NCBI GenBank assembly: GCA_017502525.1
Contig: JAFVUV010000010.1
Location: 494-64,493, forward strand
Source: Clostridia bacterium
GTDB lineage: Bacteria > Bacillota > Clostridia > Christensenellales > Borkfalkiaceae
Reading direction: 5' to 3'
DNA length: 64,000 nucleotides
The position numbers were made by a program, and so were the translations under genes. Below are positions 1,925 to 8,668 of this stretch, piece after piece. A model generated the notes under the pieces. It was not told where the DNA came from, made no database searches, and saw only the letters and a program-made list of their open reading frames with translations. Positions within the stretch are counted from its first letter, which is position 1, and each line of letters begins with the position of its first letter.

Positions 1925-3268
1925 ATGAAATTTTTTTTATTAAAAATGAAAGTTTATGGAATTAAATGCATAGATAAAGAAGTTGTTTTGAATTTTTATA
2001 ATAAAACGCTGCAAGAGAAATTGGAGATTTCTAAATCACATGTTAAGGCTATTTATGGTACAAATGGTGCAGGAAAAACGGGAATTATTTATGCTGTAGA
2101 TATTTATCGAAAATTAATGCTTCAACAAGATTATATTACATTAGGAAATTCGTTTTCTAATAATCTTTTTTTAAACTTGATCAACCAAAAGACTCATAAA
2201 TTTGAAATTGAAATGACATTTGCGTTGATAGATAAAAAAGATACGTTGAAGACTGTTTTTACACACAAGGTTGTTATCGAAGAAGATAATGGTAAATTTA
2301 GTCTATCAGAAGAAAAATTAATTGAAAATAGTATTAAAAATGTAGATTTAGAAAAAGAAATAATTTTTCATGTTAAAAAGGGCGAAATAGAATTGATTAC
2401 AAATGCTTGCCCAGACAAGGAGACAGTGAAAAATTTAACGATGAATTTATTACAAAAACAAAGTTTTGTAAATATATTATTTCATAATTTCTTTAAAAAC
2501 AAAAATTTTAAGATTGACGACAAATTTAATTTTGCAATTATTGCAACACAAGTATTTTCTGCAAATTTAACGGTGGTTCTACAAGACTCAGATACCAATT
2601 ATATTGATTTTGATGCGATAAGTAGTCAGTATGAATGGCTTGGGCAAATAAAAGATAATATAAAAGATGATGCAACATTTTATCAGCTTCTTACGCAAAA
2701 ACGAATTACAATGAACAATACGGAAAAAGTTTATAAAAATGAGTTTGAAGAGTATAAAAAAGATATAGAGGCTCTTTGTTCTTTTATAAAAGTTTTCAAA
2801 AATGATTTAGTAAATATAGAAATAAAAACAGAAGATAATGGAGATGTCTATGAATGTGATAATATAATGGTTTATGAGGATGGAAAAAGGATAAATAAGA
2901 AATATGAAAGTACAGGCATAAAAAAAATAATACAGCTTTATTCTGCTTTATGCGATATAGAACATGATAAAATTGTTTTTATAGATGAATTTGACGCTAA
3001 TATTCATGATGTACTTTTGGTTAAACTTATTCAATATATAGTTGAGTATGCTTCAGGGCAATTTGTTTTTACAACACATAATCTTGCTCCTATGGATGTT
3101 TTGCAAAAATACAAACATTCAATTGATTTTCTTTCAGTGGATTCTAAACTTGTTCCATGGGTCAAAAATGGTAATCGTAAGGCAGCATTTCAATATAGTA
3201 AAGGACTGATAGAATATTCTCCTTTTAACCTTGAACCATTTAATTTCCTTGGAGTTTTTGGAGAGTAA
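1925..3268 (+). CDS. ABC/AAA_21-like ATPase of the OLD/AbiL/PARIS class (ATPase component without nuclease domain)
   Basis: Walker A GTNGAGKTG. Signature-like STGIKK. Walker B IVFIDEFDANIHD. H-loop FTTHN. Long helical insertion between Walker A and B, typical of AAA_15/AAA_21 defence ATPases. Confidence 0.75.
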   Translation: MKFFLLKMKVYGIKCIDKEVVLNFYNKTLQEKLEISKSHVKAIYGTNGAGKTGIIYAVDIYRKLMLQQDYITLGNSFSNNLFLNLINQKTHKFEIEMTFALIDKKDTLKTVFTHKVVIEEDNGKFSLSEEKLIENSIKNVDLEKEIIFHVKKGEIELITNACPDKETVKNLTMNLLQKQSFVNILFHNFFKNKNFKIDDKFNFAIIATQVFSANLTVVLQDSDTNYIDFDAISSQYEWLGQIKDNIKDDATFYQLLTQKRITMNNTEKVYKNEFEEYKKDIEALCSFIKVFKNDLVNIEIKTEDNGDVYECDNIMVYEDGKRINKKYESTGIKKIIQLYSALCDIEHDKIVFIDEFDANIHDVLLVKLIQYIVEYASGQFVFTTHNLAPMDVLQKYKHSIDFLSVDSKLVPWVKNGNRKAAFQYSKGLIEYSPFNLEPFNFLGVFGE

Positions 3269-3269
3269 T

Positions 3270-3782
3270 ATGTTAGCTTTAATTTTTTGTGTTGAATGTA
3301 ATAAAAAATCAGAATCTGACAAAATGTATATATCAAATGTTATAAAAAATTTTTATAAACTAGATACATCAATCAAAACAAGATATTTGAATTTTGCTGG
3401 TAAAGGAAAATATAAGAGTGAAAAAATAAAGAAAGAAATTGAAAAAATTAAAGCAGAACCACATTACAAGCAAATTAAAGTTGTTTACTGCGTTGATGCT
3501 GACAAGATTCAAGCAGATCCAGATACAAATAAACTAAATGAAGAAATAAAAAAATATTGCAAAAAAAATAATTATGAATTTGTATGGTTTTGTAGAAACA
3601 TAGAAGATGTTTTTTTACATAAAACTATAAATAATTCTAAAGAAAAGATAAAAGCGGCAAAGAAAGTTGGTAGAGTTGGGGGGATAGGCCTTGCAACAGA
3701 AAAAACATTGACAGCCACTAAGCTTTCGGAGAACAAAAGCAATTTGATGTCTGTTGTAGATAAAGTTTTGCAAAGAAAATAA
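3270..3782 (+). CDS. RloB/DUF4276-like Toprim protein, partner of the upstream ATPase
   Basis: ATG lies 1 nt after the ATPase stop. N-terminal LIFCVECNKKSE (Toprim Glu), central VVYCVDADK (DxD) and C-terminal FCRNIEDVFLH resemble the RloB pattern. The ORF-track start at 3231 overlaps the upstream gene and is less likely. Confidence 0.6.
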   Translation: MLALIFCVECNKKSESDKMYISNVIKNFYKLDTSIKTRYLNFAGKGKYKSEKIKKEIEKIKAEPHYKQIKVVYCVDADKIQADPDTNKLNEEIKKYCKKNNYEFVWFCRNIEDVFLHKTINNSKEKIKAAKKVGRVGGIGLATEKTLTATKLSENKSNLMSVVDKVLQRK

Positions 3783-3804
3783 AAAATATTCTATGTAACT
3801 AGTC

Positions 3805-3850
3805 ATAACCTAATCCGAACCTCAAACTCGGGTTAGGTTATTTTCTTTTC
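3805..3850 (+). terminator. Intrinsic terminator of the ATPase/Toprim operon
   Basis: 14-bp stem ATAACCTAATCCGA / TCGGGTTAGGTTAT (one G-U) followed by a TTTCTTTTC tract. Confidence 0.7.
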
Positions 3851-3985
3851 AAAGTCCTTGTTTAAGTGCTTTTTTATTTTAAATTTTGATGTTTTGATAG
3901 TAATTTGTGTGTCATAAAACCTTGATTATGAGATTATTACGTGGTATAAGCAAAGTAAAAACATATTCAAGGAGAAAAAATTATT

Positions 3986-4588
3986 GTGAAAAAGTTTTAT
4001 ATTGGTGAAAACAAATATTTAGAGCAAAAAGTTTTGGCTTTTTATAACTGCGATTACGTAGGGTATCAAAAACAAGGTAATCCTGACTTTATCAACCACC
4101 TTAAAAACATGACTAATCAGTATAACGAGTTGGATTTAGTTGAAGATTTTGTTCAAGTTTCTGAAAGATTTGTTAAAGATATGGAAAGCCTTTTTGATAA
4201 AGGCGATTATAAAAATTTTACAGTTTGCGTTATGCCCCGTTCTAAAAGAGAAAATAAGTATAAACAAAGTCAATTAATGTTCAAAAAGGCAATTTCAAGT
4301 TGTGCTAATAAATTAGGTTTTATTAACGGCACGGATGCTATTACAAGAGTTAAAGACACTAAAACAACGCATAATTGGAGACTTGAAAACAATACGGGCG
4401 ACAATCCATATAAAGGCATAACGAAAGACACTTGCAGAGTTGATACAAACAAGATTATTGACAAAAATATTATTTTAGTTGATGATATTTATACAGAAGG
4501 GGTAAATGTTATTGAAGATTGTATAGGGTATTTATTTGATTTAGGCGCAAAAAGTGTTATACTATACGTAACGGCAAAAACAAGGTAA
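3986..4588 (+). CDS. Type I phosphoribosyltransferase (ComF-like PRTase without N-terminal Cys zinc finger)
   Basis: PRPP-binding loop NIILVDDIYTEGVNV near the C-terminus. GTG start with AAGGAG RBS. Confidence 0.75.
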   Translation: MKKFYIGENKYLEQKVLAFYNCDYVGYQKQGNPDFINHLKNMTNQYNELDLVEDFVQVSERFVKDMESLFDKGDYKNFTVCVMPRSKRENKYKQSQLMFKKAISSCANKLGFINGTDAITRVKDTKTTHNWRLENNTGDNPYKGITKDTCRVDTNKIIDKNIILVDDIYTEGVNVIEDCIGYLFDLGAKSVILYVTAKTR

Positions 4589-4593
4589 AAGTT

Positions 4594-5421
4594 ATGAATT
4601 CAAATATATCGTTAAAACTTTATAACTTAATAAAAACGGGCGTTATAAAATCTAACGCTCATTTTTGGAAGGCTTTTTATAACGAAGAAGTTATAAACAC
4701 TTTCTCTTGTGACATAGAAACCTTAAAACAAGAACTTGAAGAAAAAGGAATAAATATTATCAGCGTTTTTGATGATAATTTTCCTATCGCAGACGGTAAA
4801 GTAAAAAATAGTGAAAAGCCGTTTTTCTTTGCATATAAAGGCGATATAAGTTTACTTATAGATATTGATAAAAACATTGCAGTAATAGGTGTTTTAACGC
4901 CGACAAAAGAGATAACAGAAAGAGGACAAAAGGTTGTTAAAAGTCTGGTTGAAAAAGGTTTTAATATCGTAAGTGGGCTTGCAAATGGTTGCGACACGAT
5001 TGCCCATTTTGAAAGTATTAAAAATAATGCAAAAACAATAGCTTTTCTTCCGTCAACGATAGAATACATTTATCCAAAACAAAATATTGATTTAGCAAAC
5101 GAGATAGTTGAAAAAGAGGGACTCATAGTTAGCGAATATGTAAACGAGCCTAAAAATAAACATGAAAGAATTAAAAGATTTATAGAAAGGGATAGATTGC
5201 AAGCACTTTATTCAAAAGCAGTTATTTTGGTTGCTAGTTTTAGAAAAGGCGAAGGGGATAGTGGCTCGCGCCATGCTTTTGAAAAGGCAAAAGAATATAG
5301 CAAAAAACGACTCGTTATGTTTAGAGAAAGCGATTCTAGCGATTTAATTTTCGGGTTAAACAAAGATTACGTTATTCAGGGCGAAAAGGTTGTGTCGCAA
5401 AAAGAAATTGAGGAATTATAA
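4594..5421 (+). CDS. DprA/Smf-like Rossmann-fold protein (SLOG superfamily)
   Basis: IAVIGVLTPT...VSGLANGCDTIAH...IAFLPSTIEYIYPKQN...LIVSEY...FIERDRL...ILVAS follows the DprA core pattern (SGxAxGIDxxAH, YPxxN, FxxRNR). Starts 5 nt after the PRTase stop. Confidence 0.75.
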   Translation: MNSNISLKLYNLIKTGVIKSNAHFWKAFYNEEVINTFSCDIETLKQELEEKGINIISVFDDNFPIADGKVKNSEKPFFFAYKGDISLLIDIDKNIAVIGVLTPTKEITERGQKVVKSLVEKGFNIVSGLANGCDTIAHFESIKNNAKTIAFLPSTIEYIYPKQNIDLANEIVEKEGLIVSEYVNEPKNKHERIKRFIERDRLQALYSKAVILVASFRKGEGDSGSRHAFEKAKEYSKKRLVMFRESDSSDLIFGLNKDYVIQGEKVVSQKEIEEL

Positions 5422-5943
5422 TTGGTTTACGTTGTAGATTTAGATGATACTTTGGTTTCAACGAAAAACCTAAATAACGATGCTTATAATTTTGCTTTAG
5501 AGAATAACGGACATAAAAGACTTAAAACAAGCAAAAGGTTGACACGTGAGAACTTAGGCGAAACACTTAGCAAAAAATTGATAGCCGATAAGCAAAACTA
5601 TTTTACTCAAAAGTGGCTTAAATATAGAGTTGTGGTTAACGAATATTTATTAAATATTTTGCGAAAACAAGACGTTCAAAATTGTTATCTTTGGACAAGC
5701 GCAGATAAAAATCGAGCCAAGTATTTATTAAAAGAATTGGATTTAGCTAAATACTTTAACAAGATAATTTTTGACGACAAAAAAGACTTAAATAGTTCAT
5801 TAAAAAGATTAAAAGACATTACCAAAAGTAATGTCTTTATAATTTTTGAAGATAGTTATGCTTTGTATAAGAATAAAGGCGTAAGTTATATAGCGAAACA
5901 TAATAGTGAAATCTTCACAATAAATACATATTTTTATCAGTAA
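5422..5943 (+). CDS. HAD-superfamily hydrolase (phosphatase-like)
   Basis: Motif I VVDLDDTLV (DxDxT), motif II LWTSA, motif IV-like IIFDDKKD. TTG start directly abuts the DprA-like stop codon. Confidence 0.65.
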   Translation: MVYVVDLDDTLVSTKNLNNDAYNFALENNGHKRLKTSKRLTRENLGETLSKKLIADKQNYFTQKWLKYRVVVNEYLLNILRKQDVQNCYLWTSADKNRAKYLLKELDLAKYFNKIIFDDKKDLNSSLKRLKDITKSNVFIIFEDSYALYKNKGVSYIAKHNSEIFTINTYFYQ

Positions 5944-5995
5944 AAACCTAACGAAAAAGACAAAATGGTTCTTTTAGTTAGGCAAACTTGCAACC

Positions 5996-6034
5996 AAAAA
6001 GAAAAGGACACTAAAGGGTGTCCTTTTTCTTTTT
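5996..6034 (+). terminator. Intrinsic, bidirectional-looking terminator after the PRTase-DprA-HAD operon
   Basis: AAAAAGAAAAGGACAC - loop - GTGTCCTTTTTCTTTTT: a long A/T-flanked stem with one bulge. Confidence 0.7.
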
Positions 6035-6046
6035 GACGTGCTGAAA

Positions 6047-6209
6047 GGAGAGAGGGGATTTGAATTAGGAGAAAACTTGCTTGGCAAGTTTGCCCAAAGG
6101 GCTAAATGGTGGGCACCCACCATTTAGCGGGAGGCTCGAGAGAAGAAAATCCCCTCCCCGCAACCACTAGATACACTGTTGAACCACCTATGGTTCAACA
6201 GTGTTTTTT
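6047..6209 (+). ncRNA. Candidate structured small RNA (multi-hairpin element closed by a long-range stem, ending in a strong intrinsic terminator); class unknown
   Basis: - Long-range pairing: GAGGGGATTT (6052-6061) with AAATCCCCTC (6147-6156).
- Internal hairpins: AAACTTGC/GCAAGTTT, GCCC/GGGC and TAAATGGTGG-GCAC-CCACCATTTA.
- Competing helix: GCGGGAGG (6127-6134) with CCTCCCCGC (6152-6160).
- Terminator: ACACTGTTGAACCA-CCTA-TGGTTCAACAGTGT + T6 (6173-6209).
- No ORF in this stretch. Confidence 0.45.
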
Positions 6210-6274
6210 ATTAGCAAAAATCTAATCATTTTAAAAAGCGAAAACCTTGAAAGTTTTTGCTTTTTTTATTTTTG

Positions 6275-6303
6275 TTGAAAACTTATGAAAAAAGTGATAT
6301 AAT
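6275..6303 (+). promoter_or_regulatory. Near-consensus sigma-70 promoter with extended -10 for the 6364 gene
   Basis: TTGAAA (6275-6280), 17-nt spacer, then TGaTATAAT (6295-6303). Confidence 0.6.
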
Positions 6304-6363
6304 ATGACACACATATGGCATTTTTATGGGCTATAATAAAGAAAAAATATAAGGGATTACGTT

Positions 6364-7620
6364 ATGCAAAAGCCTCATATTCATTTAATTGATAGGCAAC
6401 AAGAAATAAAAATAACTATATTGGAAAGAAATGAAGGACAACCATATGGAACAGATGATAATGATTTTTTGCCTGTTAAAATTGAATATACAAGCAAAAA
6501 GGTAAGCTTTATAAAGGAGCTCATATATTTTGACACTTATGAAATGCTTTGCTTTTATTGTTCTTTAGATAACATTTCTATAGGTAATATTAAGAAACAA
6601 GGTTTTTCTTTTTTTGTAGAGCCCGATATAGATTTTTTGTTGGAGAATATAGATGGTAAAATATTATTTACTATATTTTACAAAGAAAACGAAGAAAATA
6701 AAGATAGAATTGAATTAAAACAGGTGTTTACCAAACAACAATTTAATGAATTGATTAAAAAAGTTCATCAAGGTTGTAGTTTGTGGTTTGATGATAGTGA
6801 CATTATTGAGTTTAGGGAATATTTAGATAGTATCGAAGATGGTTACTACGATGAAGTTTTGCCAAGGCATAGAGTAGCAGAAGTAGAGTTTAAAAATAGT
6901 GGTAAATTATATTGTTATTTATGTAAAGATGAAAGTATAAAAAAAGGTGATTTAGTTGTTGTTCCAACTTTTTTTGATAAAGAAACTATTGCTGAAATCA
7001 TAGGCATAGAGTATTTTGAGGAAGATGATTTGCCTTGTTCATTAGATAAAATGAAAAAGGTAATCAAAAAATATGTTAAGCCACTAAGCGACAAGATAGG
7101 TGTTCATAGTTATGATATAACCGAAGGTGGCTTTGGATTTGGATTATTGGTAAACTTTGTGTTTCAAAAAGATGGGAATTCAGAATTTTCAATCAAAGAT
7201 AAAAACGCTTACTATAATGTTTATTTGAAAGAATACAGAGACATATATTTAGATTCTTATAGAGAGATGCTTATGCTAAAACCCAACGAAATGAAAATCA
7301 CGAAAGGACTATGGTTAACGGCAGAAAAAGTTTTGCATATAGGTTTTGTTGATAAAAAGAAAAACTTTAGCATGTTTTTTAATAACATTTTAGATAAAGC
7401 AAAAAAACTAAATATACGTTGGGTGGGAATCCCTTGTATTTTAGAAAAATATAATGGAATTAGAGAAACGACATTTTTTAAAACTGCATTAAAAGCAACA
7501 AAAAAGTGGATTTTAGAAAATAATAAATATGAGATAGAAATTCTTTTTTGTTGCCCAAATAAAAGATTATATAAAAAATTTAAGAAAATTTACGATAAAA
7601 AAATAAAAGCGAATAACTAA
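6364..7620 (+). CDS. Hypothetical 418-aa cytoplasmic protein; C-terminal ~120 aa weakly macro-domain-like
   Basis: No signal peptide or TM helix. The C-terminal stretch GLWLTAEKVLHIGFV...NIRWVGIPCILEKYNGIRETTFFKTALKATKKWILEN...EIEILFCC resembles the macro-domain pattern by eye only. Confidence 0.3.
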   Translation: MQKPHIHLIDRQQEIKITILERNEGQPYGTDDNDFLPVKIEYTSKKVSFIKELIYFDTYEMLCFYCSLDNISIGNIKKQGFSFFVEPDIDFLLENIDGKILFTIFYKENEENKDRIELKQVFTKQQFNELIKKVHQGCSLWFDDSDIIEFREYLDSIEDGYYDEVLPRHRVAEVEFKNSGKLYCYLCKDESIKKGDLVVVPTFFDKETIAEIIGIEYFEEDDLPCSLDKMKKVIKKYVKPLSDKIGVHSYDITEGGFGFGLLVNFVFQKDGNSEFSIKDKNAYYNVYLKEYRDIYLDSYREMLMLKPNEMKITKGLWLTAEKVLHIGFVDKKKNFSMFFNNILDKAKKLNIRWVGIPCILEKYNGIRETTFFKTALKATKKWILENNKYEIEILFCCPNKRLYKKFKKIYDKKIKANN

Positions 7621-7648
7621 TTGGCTATTTAATTAGTAGAATAAAAAG

Positions 7649-7674
7649 AGCGTTAGAGAATTTCTAACGCTTTT
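7649..7674 (+). terminator. Intrinsic terminator after the 6364 gene
   Basis: AGCGTTAGA-GAATT-TCTAACGCT followed by TTT. Confidence 0.6.
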
Positions 7675-7825
7675 ACTATTACGGCTCTGCTGGTTTATGA
7701 GTCTGTCAATGAAAAAAATAAGCATTGATTGTGAGATAAATAAAAGTTTATTCAATAACAAACTGTTGTTAAATATAAAAGACTATCGATTTGTTTCGGT
7801 AGTCTTTTTAAGTTAATCGTAATTA

Positions 7826-8668
7826 TTATTGTTGTAAGTTTTTGCGATAATCGGACGGGGATGTATTATATTTTTTTTGGAATACTCTGTTAAAGTATGA
7901 AATGTTGTTAAAACCGCAGTCTAACGCGATAGTAATTATTTTTTGGTCGCTTTGTTTTAACAAGTTTTCGGCTTTTTCTAGTCTTAATTCCGTGTAGTAG
8001 TCGTTAAACGATATGCCCATTTGTTTTTTAAATAGTCTACCTAGGTACTGTTCGTTTTTTTGATAGGTTAGGGCAAGTTCTTTTAAGGAAATATTATAAC
8101 AAAAACGCTTATCGGCAAAACGCTTCATTGAAGAAACTAGCCAATGTAAATCGTTTTTAATTTTAGGAACTTCGTTATACAAAATTTTCAAATAATCTGC
8201 GACTAGGTGCGCTATTTGGAAAAGTTCGTTAGCGTCTTGGGTAAACTCGCAATTATTGAGTTGTTTTAAAAGCGCATCTTCGGGAACGCCGGTAGACGCA
8301 CAAGATTTTTTCAAGCGTTTCTTGGTTTTGTTTAAGTCTAATACTGCGTTGCCAACGTACACCGTTGCGACGATAGAATCGTCGATTACTACGGGAACAG
8401 TAGCTTCGTAAAGCCCAAAAAAGCATTGACCTAAAAAATTCGACTTTGTTGTTCTTGACCTTTTATTTGCAAAAGATTTGCACGTCAAACAAGCGTGATG
8501 CCCTTTTTTTGTCGATTTTGCAATATCGCAAAATTTTTTCGAGTGAATTATATTTTTAAAGCGTAATTCGGTGGCAGACATATTTAAAATACCGTTGAAA
8601 TCTTCAATGCAAATATGTACGTTTCTGCCCTTTTCTATTTGTTCGATTAAAACCTGTAATTTTTCCAT
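7826..8668 (-). CDS. AraC-family transcriptional regulator with N-terminal PocR-type sensor domain
   Basis: C-terminal double HTH (ISLKELALTYQ...YFNRVFQKKYNTSPSDYR). N-terminal Cys-containing PocR-like region (FCDIAKSTKKGHHACLTCKSF). Divergent from the glycan operon. Confidence 0.85.
   Translation of the reverse strand: MEKLQVLIEQIEKGRNVHICIEDFNGILNMSATELRFKNIIHSKKFCDIAKSTKKGHHACLTCKSFANKRSRTTKSNFLGQCFFGLYEATVPVVIDDSIVATVYVGNAVLDLNKTKKRLKKSCASTGVPEDALLKQLNNCEFTQDANELFQIAHLVADYLKILYNEVPKIKNDLHWLVSSMKRFADKRFCYNISLKELALTYQKNEQYLGRLFKKQMGISFNDYYTELRLEKAENLLKQSDQKIITIALDCGFNNISYFNRVFQKKYNTSPSDYRKNLQQ

Follow-up and report, generated by a model that had tools for sequence, protein, structure and literature searches.

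A probable split, three-gene form of the ShosTA toxin-antitoxin cassette in a Clostridia bacterium

Three consecutive genes of the window (the whole 64,000-nt stretch of Clostridia DNA that was analysed), encoding a phosphoribosyltransferase (PRTase), a DprA-like protein and a HAD-superfamily hydrolase, probably constitute a self-contained, horizontally mobile toxin-antitoxin/abortive-infection cassette of the ShosTA type, present here in a split three-gene form. Genes 1 and 2 are homologous to ShosT and ShosA, respectively; that the first product is toxic, that the second counteracts it, that the cassette defends against phages and what the HAD enzyme acts on we infer by homology to ShosTA of E. 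coli. The latter system was reportedly described by Kimelman (2012) and Millman (2022). Its mechanism has been addressed by Pu et al. 2025 (PMC11961720) and Yang et al. 2026 (PMC12961424).

Gene layout and cassette borders

The three genes are intact, lie on the forward strand and are tightly spaced between two terminator hairpins. The putative toxin gene, encoding a stand-alone type I PRTase (3986..4588, GTG start, 200 aa, carrying IILVDDIYTEGVN), is followed after 5 nt (4589-4593) by the putative shosA-like antitoxin gene (4594..5421, ATG start, 275 aa), whose product carries SGLANGCDTIAH, YPKQN and FIERDRL. The TAA stop codon of the latter (5419-5421) abuts the TTG start of the predicted phosphohydrolase gene (5422..5943, 173 aa, carrying DLDDT), which has a GAGGA Shine-Dalgarno sequence at 5410-5414. 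The packed arrangement described in an earlier note on this DNA holds. Since the start codon of the HAD gene abuts the shosA-like stop, the sequence suggests that the HAD gene is translationally coupled to its neighbor.

The same note described the genes as bracketed by their own terminators, which was confirmed on both sides. Downstream, the terminator scan reported an intrinsic terminator (stem-loop 6001-6028 followed by a T-run) within the right cassette edge (6001..6035), and the DNA similarity to the related locus L001 stops at position 6035. At the left edge (3794..3850), where the similarity to L001 starts at 3794, RNA folding identified a hairpin at 3805-3841 (-18.3 kcal/mol, z = -4.1, none of 200 shuffled sequences equally good) followed by a U-rich tail; the scanner missed it because its loop exceeds the permitted 3-8 nt. 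This upstream hairpin is predicted to insulate the cassette from the AbiL-like pair that precedes it. A candidate promoter (TTGATT-17 nt-TATAAG, 3922..3950, forward strand) was read by eye within the stretch conserved with L001 and a second related locus, L050; it is absent from the output of the scanner, which demands a -10 hexamer with T as its sixth base, where TATAAG has G. The Rfam search over 3000-8000 returned only a sub-threshold match resembling the ylbH leader, overlapping the terminator, which we treated as due to chance.

Upstream of the cassette, the gene at 1925-3268 encodes an ATPase that matches AbiLi (2e-27) and AAA_21, and an IS3-like transposase ORF occupies 587-1726 on the reverse strand. 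The former had been regarded as half of an OLD-type ATPase/Toprim pair; the ATPase part of this assignment stands, while "Toprim" is a tentative label, as the 183-aa partner of the ATPase matched no profile in PADLOC, Pfam or PHROGs. The same three databases provided nothing informative for the 418-aa orphan protein encoded downstream or for the neighbors of the cassette in other loci.

Relationship to ShosT and ShosA, mobility, and the competence genes

The PRTase matches the ShosT profile of PADLOC (8.4e-10) and possesses a PRPP loop VDDIYTEG, in which D166 and D167 are invariant across the family, as well as a long flexible loop. Its AlphaFold2 (AF2) model is of high confidence (pLDDT 92), and the top Foldseek matches in the PDB are structures of ShosT (8zvc, 8zvb, 8zvd), ahead of ComF. 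The hhalign comparison of the PRTase family with the ShosT family (87.6% probability) aligned DDIYTEG with the DDFCTEG segment of ShosT that contains D331/D332, the residues whose mutation abolishes toxicity (PMC11961720). The similarity is nonetheless remote (16-18% identity, TM about 0.47), which we counted against identity with ShosTA, and sequence searches of the PDB reported no ShosT match, either with the PRTase (single sequence and family profile) or with intermediate sequences from Moraxella. E. coli ShosT comprises a HAD-like pyrophosphatase (PPase) domain (residues 1-164) and a PRTase domain (165-424) (Pu et al. 2025, PMC11961720); the sequence, Pfam and the AF2 model agree that a fused HAD domain is absent from the 200-aa PRTase. 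In one relative that lost ShosA, the PRTase has a broken DD motif (VSDFY), an observation indirectly in line with a toxic PRTase that ShosA neutralizes.

For the DprA-like protein the relationship is evident already at the sequence level: it matches the ShosA profile of PADLOC with 2.3e-52, its best PDB sequence match is E. coli ShosA (8zva/9vzo, 2.4e-16), and it consists of a DprA Rossmann domain only, with a match to Pfam DNA_processg_A (7e-37). A ShosA-like gene was found directly downstream of the PRTase gene in all 15 full-length relatives from species-representative genomes. [quoted passage not shown] 2022, PMC9122126), and PADLOC files pairs of this type as ShosTA. The proposal of an anti-phage module centered on a PRPP-using enzyme is supported, and defence by the cassette itself would follow by homology.

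The same note had proposed that the DprA-like protein acts by chemistry of the SLOG type, on N-glycosidic bonds or nucleotide signals. In its full form, such an explanation posits a new three-enzyme signalling or depletion system, in which the PRTase builds an N-glycosidic molecule, the SLOG/DprA-like protein binds or cleaves it, and the HAD enzyme trims phosphates. DprA does belong to the SLOG superfamily, other clades of which pair with PRTases in predicted nucleotide-centered conflict systems (PMC6459960), and the literature assigns no acceptor substrate to ShosT. However, the DprA-like protein fits the ShosA-specific models far better than any other, and its 275 residues lack the LOG-type catalytic motif PGGxGTxxE and carry the DprA-type GLAxGxD instead. 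Moreover, characterized E. coli ShosA binds ssDNA and RecA, both interactions being needed for its antitoxin activity, and counteracts ShosT without binding it (a type IV toxin-antitoxin system). We regard the SLOG-type chemistry as unsupported for this protein and consider the three-enzyme signalling system highly improbable.

Ordinary competence or housekeeping genes (comFC and dprA), with an unrelated HAD gene placed beside them by chance, have also been considered. H. pylori ComF ranks third among the structural matches of the PRTase, and the NCBIfam models for comF and dprA do match the two proteins (9.7e-5, a weak match, and 1.7e-34, respectively); both scores nevertheless fall well below the cutoffs (TIGR00201 comF: 22.4 vs 233.6 bits; TIGR00732 dprA: 119 vs 191 bits). 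The PRTase has no CxxC pairs and hence no ComFC zinc finger, as the earlier note had correctly pointed out, the accessory domains of DprA are missing, and next to the ComF-like paralogues that the same scan returned (L016-L048) there is neither DprA nor HAD.

The genomic distribution argues in the same direction. The 2.2-kb cassette (3794-6035) shares ~91% DNA identity with L001 and L050, and its copies have no flanking proteins in common, even where the copies are 98% identical; it is present across several phyla, and one copy lies beside phage head genes on a phage contig. This degree of identity in unrelated contexts indicates that the cassette is mobile and is not the competence dprA/comFC pair, and the recurrence of the same trio in dozens of independent contigs places the arrangement far beyond chance. 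Together with the linkage, fusions and co-evolution of the HAD gene (see below), which contradict a chance adjacency, these observations effectively refute the competence/housekeeping explanation.

The HAD hydrolase and its linkage to both partners

The third product was predicted from its DLDDT segment to be a HAD hydrolase of the DxDxT type, and motifs I-IV bear this out: all catalytic residues are intact (D6, D8, T10; T92; K120; E143-D144) and are conserved in 56-64 of 64 diverse family members. Pfam returned NIF, which clears its cutoff (6e-5), as well as HAD_2 (1e-4). Foldseek places the model, which is of moderate confidence (pLDDT 69), in the HAD-IA fold with generic HAD-IA matches; the top 50 matches of this model do not include ShosT.

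The N-terminal domain of ShosT is likewise assigned to the HAD superfamily by Pfam, and the HAD protein of the window appears to correspond, as a product of its own gene, to the HAD domain that related proteins carry in fusion with their PRTase. PDB sequence searches with the HAD protein (single sequence and family profile) reported no ShosT match; the nearest matches, all weak, include XMP phosphatase. The hhalign comparison of the diverse HAD family with a family of 76 ShosT sequences aligned motif I alone (probability 3%, E = 0.014), and a shallow HAD profile compared with a single ShosT sequence likewise gave motif I only, without significance; for this reason we stop short of calling the two HAD modules orthologous. 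The nucleophilic Asp is missing from the E. coli-type domain (G/S in 75 of 76 sequences), whereas the HAD protein of the window retains it, so the two may represent independent acquisitions or carry out different chemistry.

The association of the HAD gene with the other two was assessed in both directions. In a forward census of species-representative genomes, seeded on the PRTase and counting only loci not cut by contig ends, a HAD gene of this family was found in 12/12 loci, in 9 of them downstream of the ShosA-like gene (A) and in 3 upstream of the PRTase gene (T). In the reverse census, seeded on the HAD protein with a closer HAD alignment, ShosA adjoins HAD in 13/13 informative loci. The HAD family itself is small (only 187 representatives among 1.84 billion proteins). 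The gene orders observed in relatives are T-A-H, H-T-A, [H::T]-A, T-[A::H] and T-A-[H::X], where H is the HAD gene: HAD::PRTase fusions occur in P0383 and P0380, where the DprA-like gene starts 3 nt later, in-frame ShosA::HAD fusions in P0249 and P0275, and the T-A-[HAD::X] form in P0348. Members at the edge of the family retain the association (P0390, H-T-A; P0365, T-A-H); one locus (L071) encodes a family member with no recognizable T or A alongside. The mirror-tree correlations across 19 loci are 0.89 for PRTase-HAD, 0.91 for ShosA-HAD and 0.86 for PRTase-ShosA (Mantel p = 2e-4).

Gene-calling artefacts were considered as the origin of the fusions and rejected, because P0383 was seen in five contigs, each from another sample, and the linkers of P0249 and P0275 differ. 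P0249 is known from a single contig, in which a sequencing error is possible.

The HAD gene is obligately linked to T and A and co-evolves with both. The fixed third component proposed in the earlier note is supported by the two censuses, the fusions and correlations of about 0.9; that such a partner would be of an undescribed kind is not, since a HAD-fold PPase domain already forms the N-terminus of characterized ShosT (PMC11961720), from which the present case differs in being a separate gene.

These data also bear on the side of the system on which the HAD enzyme would act. Instead of helping the toxin, it could act beside ShosA, and be translated together with it, as an additional antitoxin of enzymatic nature that dephosphorylates, and thereby inactivates, the toxic phosphoribosylated product of the PRTase or hydrolyzes PRPP-derived intermediates. 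The apparent coupling of its start codon to the shosA stop, the in-frame fusions in P0249 and P0275, the intact motifs expected of a true phosphomonoesterase, the XMP phosphatase among its weak nearest PDB matches and a correlation with ShosA slightly above that with the PRTase are all consistent with such a role. On the other hand, the HAD module is fused to the PRTase or encoded directly upstream of it in other members and in canonical ShosT, the E. coli PPase-domain mutant R56A exhibited slightly reduced, not raised, toxicity (PMC11961720), and the substrate is not readable from the sequence. We regard an antitoxin-side enzyme as unlikely; at the same time, the HAD::antitoxin fusions of some relatives fit poorly with a purely toxin-side role.

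Proposed mechanism and comparison with known systems

If the cassette operates as a ShosTA-type system, the PRTase would bind PRPP via its DD loop and transfer or consume phosphoribosyl groups, thereby perturbing purine-nucleotide metabolism and DNA replication, to the detriment of the cell. The ShosA-like protein would leave the toxin unbound, and would bind ssDNA and RecA and repair or offset the damage; once an infecting phage stops the expression of host genes or fills the cell with ssDNA, the antitoxin would fail and the toxin would kill or arrest the cell. The HAD module, which in E. coli ShosT is the N-terminal pyrophosphatase domain, would be supplied here as a separate polypeptide coupled to shosA. 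Most likely it would remove a phosphorylated product of the PRTase reaction, either PPi, in line with the proposal made for ShosT, or the phosphate at the 5' position of the PRTase product; in both cases the removal would pull the toxin reaction forward.

The HAD domain of the E. coli type is devoid of the nucleophile, so the published picture, in which the PPase pulls the PRTase reaction, may miss the real chemistry. The latter could be the dephosphorylation of a phosphoribosylated base or nucleotide, which would make or destroy a toxic molecule, and as the lineages differ in whether T or A carries the fused HAD module, the latter may switch between toxic and safe states. We speculate, with considerable reservation, that ShosTA-type systems truly have the HAD enzyme as their third catalytic component, and not as an appendage they could do without; those split and permuted forms in which DxDxT is intact could then be the catalytically competent state.

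What is new here is that the HAD domain of the E. coli-type fused ShosT has a separate and, judging by its motifs, catalytically intact counterpart gene (with no claim of orthology), and that the HAD is retained throughout a clade as an obligate component of ShosTA, be it encoded on its own or in fusion with T or A. ShosTA has been characterized only recently; published work on it assigns no acceptor substrate to the toxin, and a PPase-domain mutation changed little. Where nature has separated the three activities, as here, each can be expressed, mutated and assayed by itself. An annotation tool built on a two-gene definition of ShosTA would presumably leave one of the three genes unreported.

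The competence pair ComFC/DprA, in which the DprA-type protein loads RecA onto ssDNA, shares its folds with the first two products (a ComF-related type I PRTase and the DprA Rossmann domain). The cassette differs from it in the lack of the Cys4 finger and of the SAM or winged-helix accessory domains of DprA, in the presence of a HAD partner, and in being a mobile cassette outside any com locus. PsyrTA/RqlHI similarly combines a DprA-like antitoxin with a PRTase-containing toxin, and PADLOC gave weak matches to PsyrA (3e-14) and, for the PRTase, to the C-terminal part of PsyrT alone (7e-4; profile positions 598-684); however, the RecQ-like helicase domain is absent from the cassette and the fit to the ShosA and ShosT profiles is much better. 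The HAD pyrophosphatase BT2127 (Huang et al. 2011) served Pu et al. (PMC11961720) as the structural model for the PPase activity of the ShosT N-domain; the HAD protein of the window has no significant sequence match to it, but shares the HAD fold, keeps the DxDxT core and resembles capped HAD-IA enzymes according to Foldseek.

The closest counterpart is ShosTA itself, and one of the related loci (L049) encodes exactly the E. coli ShosT protein, in the order A-[H::T]. Compared with this two-gene arrangement, the window has three genes in the order T-A-H, a PRTase of 200 aa instead of the 424-aa ShosT, a ShosA-like protein of 275 aa instead of about 330-350 aa, and a HAD protein that is a separate polypeptide with a DxDxT nucleophile where the E. 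coli type has G/S; the PRTases are related at the profile and fold level only, and for the HAD modules a sequence relationship is not detectable. Common to both are the PRPP-binding PRTase with its DD loop and long flexible loop, the DprA-like partner encoded on the same strand, an associated HAD-fold module, and the residence on mobile DNA and phages.

Identity of the PRTase and DprA-like genes

The cassette comprises three genes on the + strand, and their description in the earlier note proved exact when coordinates, motifs, gap and stop/start abutment were re-read in the sequence. The PRTase gene (3986-4588, GTG start, 200 aa, containing IILVDDIYTEGVN) is followed after a 5-nt gap by the DprA-like gene (4594-5421, 275 aa, containing SGLANGCDTIAH, YPKQN and FIERDRL), whose TAA stop codon directly abuts the TTG start of the HAD gene (5422-5943, 173 aa, containing DLDDT); a ribosome-binding site GAGGA lies 7 nt 5' of this TTG. 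A hairpin with a U-rich tail is present upstream (3805-3841, -18.3 kcal/mol, z = -4.1), and a terminator scan detected a terminator downstream (6001-6028).

The DprA-like protein was identified as ShosA by the PADLOC profile (2.3e-52); it also matches Pfam DNA_processg_A (7e-37), and its closest solved sequence relative is E. coli ShosA (8zva/9vzo, 2.4e-16). The suggestion that this DprA/SLOG protein cleaves N-glycosidic bonds is not supported: ShosA-specific profiles fit best, and a search of the protein for the LOG motif found none. The PRTase matches the PADLOC ShosT profile (8.4e-10) and has no sequence-level match among PDB sequences, while the top structural matches of its AF2 model (pLDDT 92) across the whole PDB are the three ShosT entries, with H. 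pylori ComF ranking behind. The profile-profile comparison with the 76-member ShosT family (87.6% probability) aligned the PRPP loop DDIYTEG to DDFCTEG of ShosT, the stretch that holds D331/D332. Competence dprA and comF were considered and rejected, as the corresponding NCBIfam models matched far under their cutoffs and the cassette sits instead in a small defence islet. The DprA and PRTase defence pair named in the earlier note is real and protects against T7 and lambda (Rousset et al. 2022, PMC9122126); PADLOC would probably recognise the present system as ShosTA, a type already known.

Linkage of the HAD gene to ShosTA

A forward census seeded with the PRTase family (one genome per species) yielded 15 full-length relatives with 33-98% identity, from Christensenellaceae, Lachnospiraceae, Veillonella, Moraxella, Anaerolineae, Armatimonadetes, Verrucomicrobia and Kiritimatiellia. 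A ShosA-like gene lies directly 3' of the PRTase in all 15, and a HAD of the same family occurs in 12/12 loci once those truncated by contig ends are excluded, downstream of ShosA in nine and immediately upstream of the PRTase in three (L008, L010 and L015; E = 1e-29 to 1e-35 with the diverse family profile). The ComF-like paralogues from the same scan (L016-L048) have neither a ShosA nor a HAD partner. In the reverse census, seeded with the HAD in metagenomes, ShosA adjoins the HAD in 13/13 informative loci. The odd locus, L063 (3303-4508), is a decayed copy with ShosA absent and only a HAD remnant; in its PRTase VSDFY replaces VDDIY, which breaks the DD motif, and PYLKSE replaces PRSK. Such changes are expected in a toxin that no longer has its antitoxin, and the decay is consistent with inactivation of the toxin after antitoxin loss.

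The HAD family is small, with only 187 members found by profile search among 1.84 billion representative proteins, and includes several fusions: HAD::PRTase with all motifs of the window's PRTase family (P0383, P0380), ShosA::HAD (P0249, P0275), and HAD joined to a PD-Lambda-3_A-like region (P0348). A DprA-like gene follows P0383 after 3 nt in several independent samples, and PRTase C-termini or ShosA are encoded upstream of P0249 and P0348. With T, A and H for the ShosT-like PRTase, the ShosA-like protein and the HAD, the context persists in divergent members at the edge of the family (P0390, H-T-A; P0365, T-A-H); one family member (L071) is found without it. In 19 loci having all three proteins, pairwise distances correlate at 0.89 (PRTase-HAD), 0.91 (ShosA-HAD) and 0.86 (PRTase-ShosA; Mantel p = 2e-4), i.e. 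the HAD distances correlate as strongly as those of the PRTase-ShosA pair itself. The fused form clusters with H-T-A loci by PRTase similarity, and we infer that T-A-H, H-T-A and the E. coli order A-[H::T] (brackets denoting fusion) are three rotations of one cyclic order.

Two loci show further arrangements. In Veillonella (L009, 8245-9204) the order is T-A-H-A, with an additional ShosA-like gene (E = 2e-61) right behind the HAD. In the locus of P0348 (L077, 1154-2296) the C-terminal region matches PADLOC PD-Lambda-3_A (1.8e-19) and a ShosA-like gene lies directly upstream; this fusion suggests that ShosTA-type cassettes are connected to a further defence-system component.

Mobility and genomic neighborhood

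The segment from hairpin to terminator (3794-6035) shows ~91% DNA identity to L001, and the match to another relative, L050, covers 3890-5980. Comparison of flanking proteins with 15 other loci revealed none in common, with the sole exception of a 418-aa orphan (6364-7620, + strand) downstream of the cassette, whose homologue in L050 (818-2080, 67% identical) is located upstream of the trio; the DNA of this region (6300-7592) is 78% identical. Since the orphan lies near the cassette yet in a different position, it may be a defence or accessory gene in its own right. It has a marginal Pfam Macro match (E = 0.0096) and no PADLOC or PHROG match. At the end of a viral contig (L078, IMG/VR UViG_3300024493_000321), genes for major head and virion structural proteins (PHROG 1e-38) are closely followed by a short ShosT and ShosA; the contig stops before the site where the HAD would be.

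In the window the cassette follows an IS3-type transposase and an AbiL-like ATPase pair, a setting that amounts to a small defence islet rather than a competence locus. The transposase ORF (587-1726, - strand, 379 aa, IS3-family-like) borders the islet, and positions 1-89 of the window are 97% identical to L002. The AbiLi-like AAA_21 ATPase (1925-3268, + strand; PADLOC 2.2e-27, also AriA- and PtuA-like) overlaps the gene of a 183-aa partner (3231-3782, + strand) with no profile match in Pfam, PADLOC, NCBIfam or PHROGs; together they probably form an AbiL-type two-gene defence system.

A conserved element of ~140 nt (5936-6068) begins at the HAD stop codon and contains, in order, a CCTAAC...GTTAGG hairpin, the CTTGCAACC motif and the terminator. 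L001 has two copies (4641-4777 and 7945-8052), one of them upstream of a different, 193-aa gene; the element could be the 3' remnant of a cassette or could act in recombination or as a boundary. A sub-threshold match to the Rfam ylbH leader (E = 0.011) was found at 5994-6100. The intergenic region 6021-6303 contains three further terminator-like hairpins (6021-6056, 6173-6204, 6233-6265) and, before the orphan, a near-consensus promoter-like site (6275-6303, 11/12 matches, extended TG).

Relationship to characterised ShosTA

E. coli ShosT (424 aa) has two domains, an N-terminal HAD-like hydrolase (residues 1-164, BT2127-like) with pyrophosphatase activity and a C-terminal PRTase (residues 165-424); its toxicity is abolished in the D331A/D332A mutant and only marginally lower in the pyrophosphatase mutant R56A, and ShosA, which binds DNA and promotes recombination, does not bind it (Pu et al. 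2025, PMC11961720). ShosA also forms dimers and has both ssDNA and RecA as binding partners (Yang et al. 2026, PMC12961424). A P2-like phage locus (L049) carries exactly this E. coli-type system, in which ShosA (349 aa) precedes a 424-aa gene whose whole length matches PDB ShosT.

By homology, the window's PRTase would use or transfer from PRPP via D166/D167 and would be toxic by disturbing purine metabolism and replication; the ShosA-like protein would offset the damage via ssDNA and RecA, and not by binding the toxin, until infection (host shutoff or phage ssDNA) strips this protection and the cell aborts. The HAD would most likely hydrolyse PPi or another phosphorylated product and so drive the PRTase reaction. 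A serious rival places the HAD on the antitoxin side, detoxifying the PRTase product, and is supported by the apparent translational coupling of its gene to shosA and by the ShosA fusions in some relatives. With the four HAD motifs essentially invariant among 64 diverse family members (D6, D8, T10, T/S92, K120, E/D143), the window's HAD is predicted to act as a competent aspartyl-phosphate hydrolase.

The window's family thus keeps the nucleophile Asp, in contrast to the canonical fused ShosT family (76 members), in which this position is G/S in 75 and Asp in none, with N53, K92 and D121 conserved. Both are HAD-superfamily by Pfam; their profile-profile comparison aligned only motif I (probability 3%), PDB sequence searches with the HAD were empty, and its moderately confident model (pLDDT 69) matches generic HAD-IA enzymes. 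We did not find the split three-gene form with its permutations and fusions, an obligate co-evolving HAD, or the contrast between intact and nucleophile-less HADs in PMC11961720, PMC12961424 or the literature searched. Because E. coli ShosT has a fused HAD-like domain, the window's HAD is probably not a foreign addition and would be the counterpart of the HAD module that characterised ShosT carries joined to its PRTase. Without extending to an origin of the window's HAD gene by fission of E. coli-type ShosT in particular, the conclusion that holds is a persistent coupling, in cis or in trans, of ShosT-type PRTases to a HAD-fold module.
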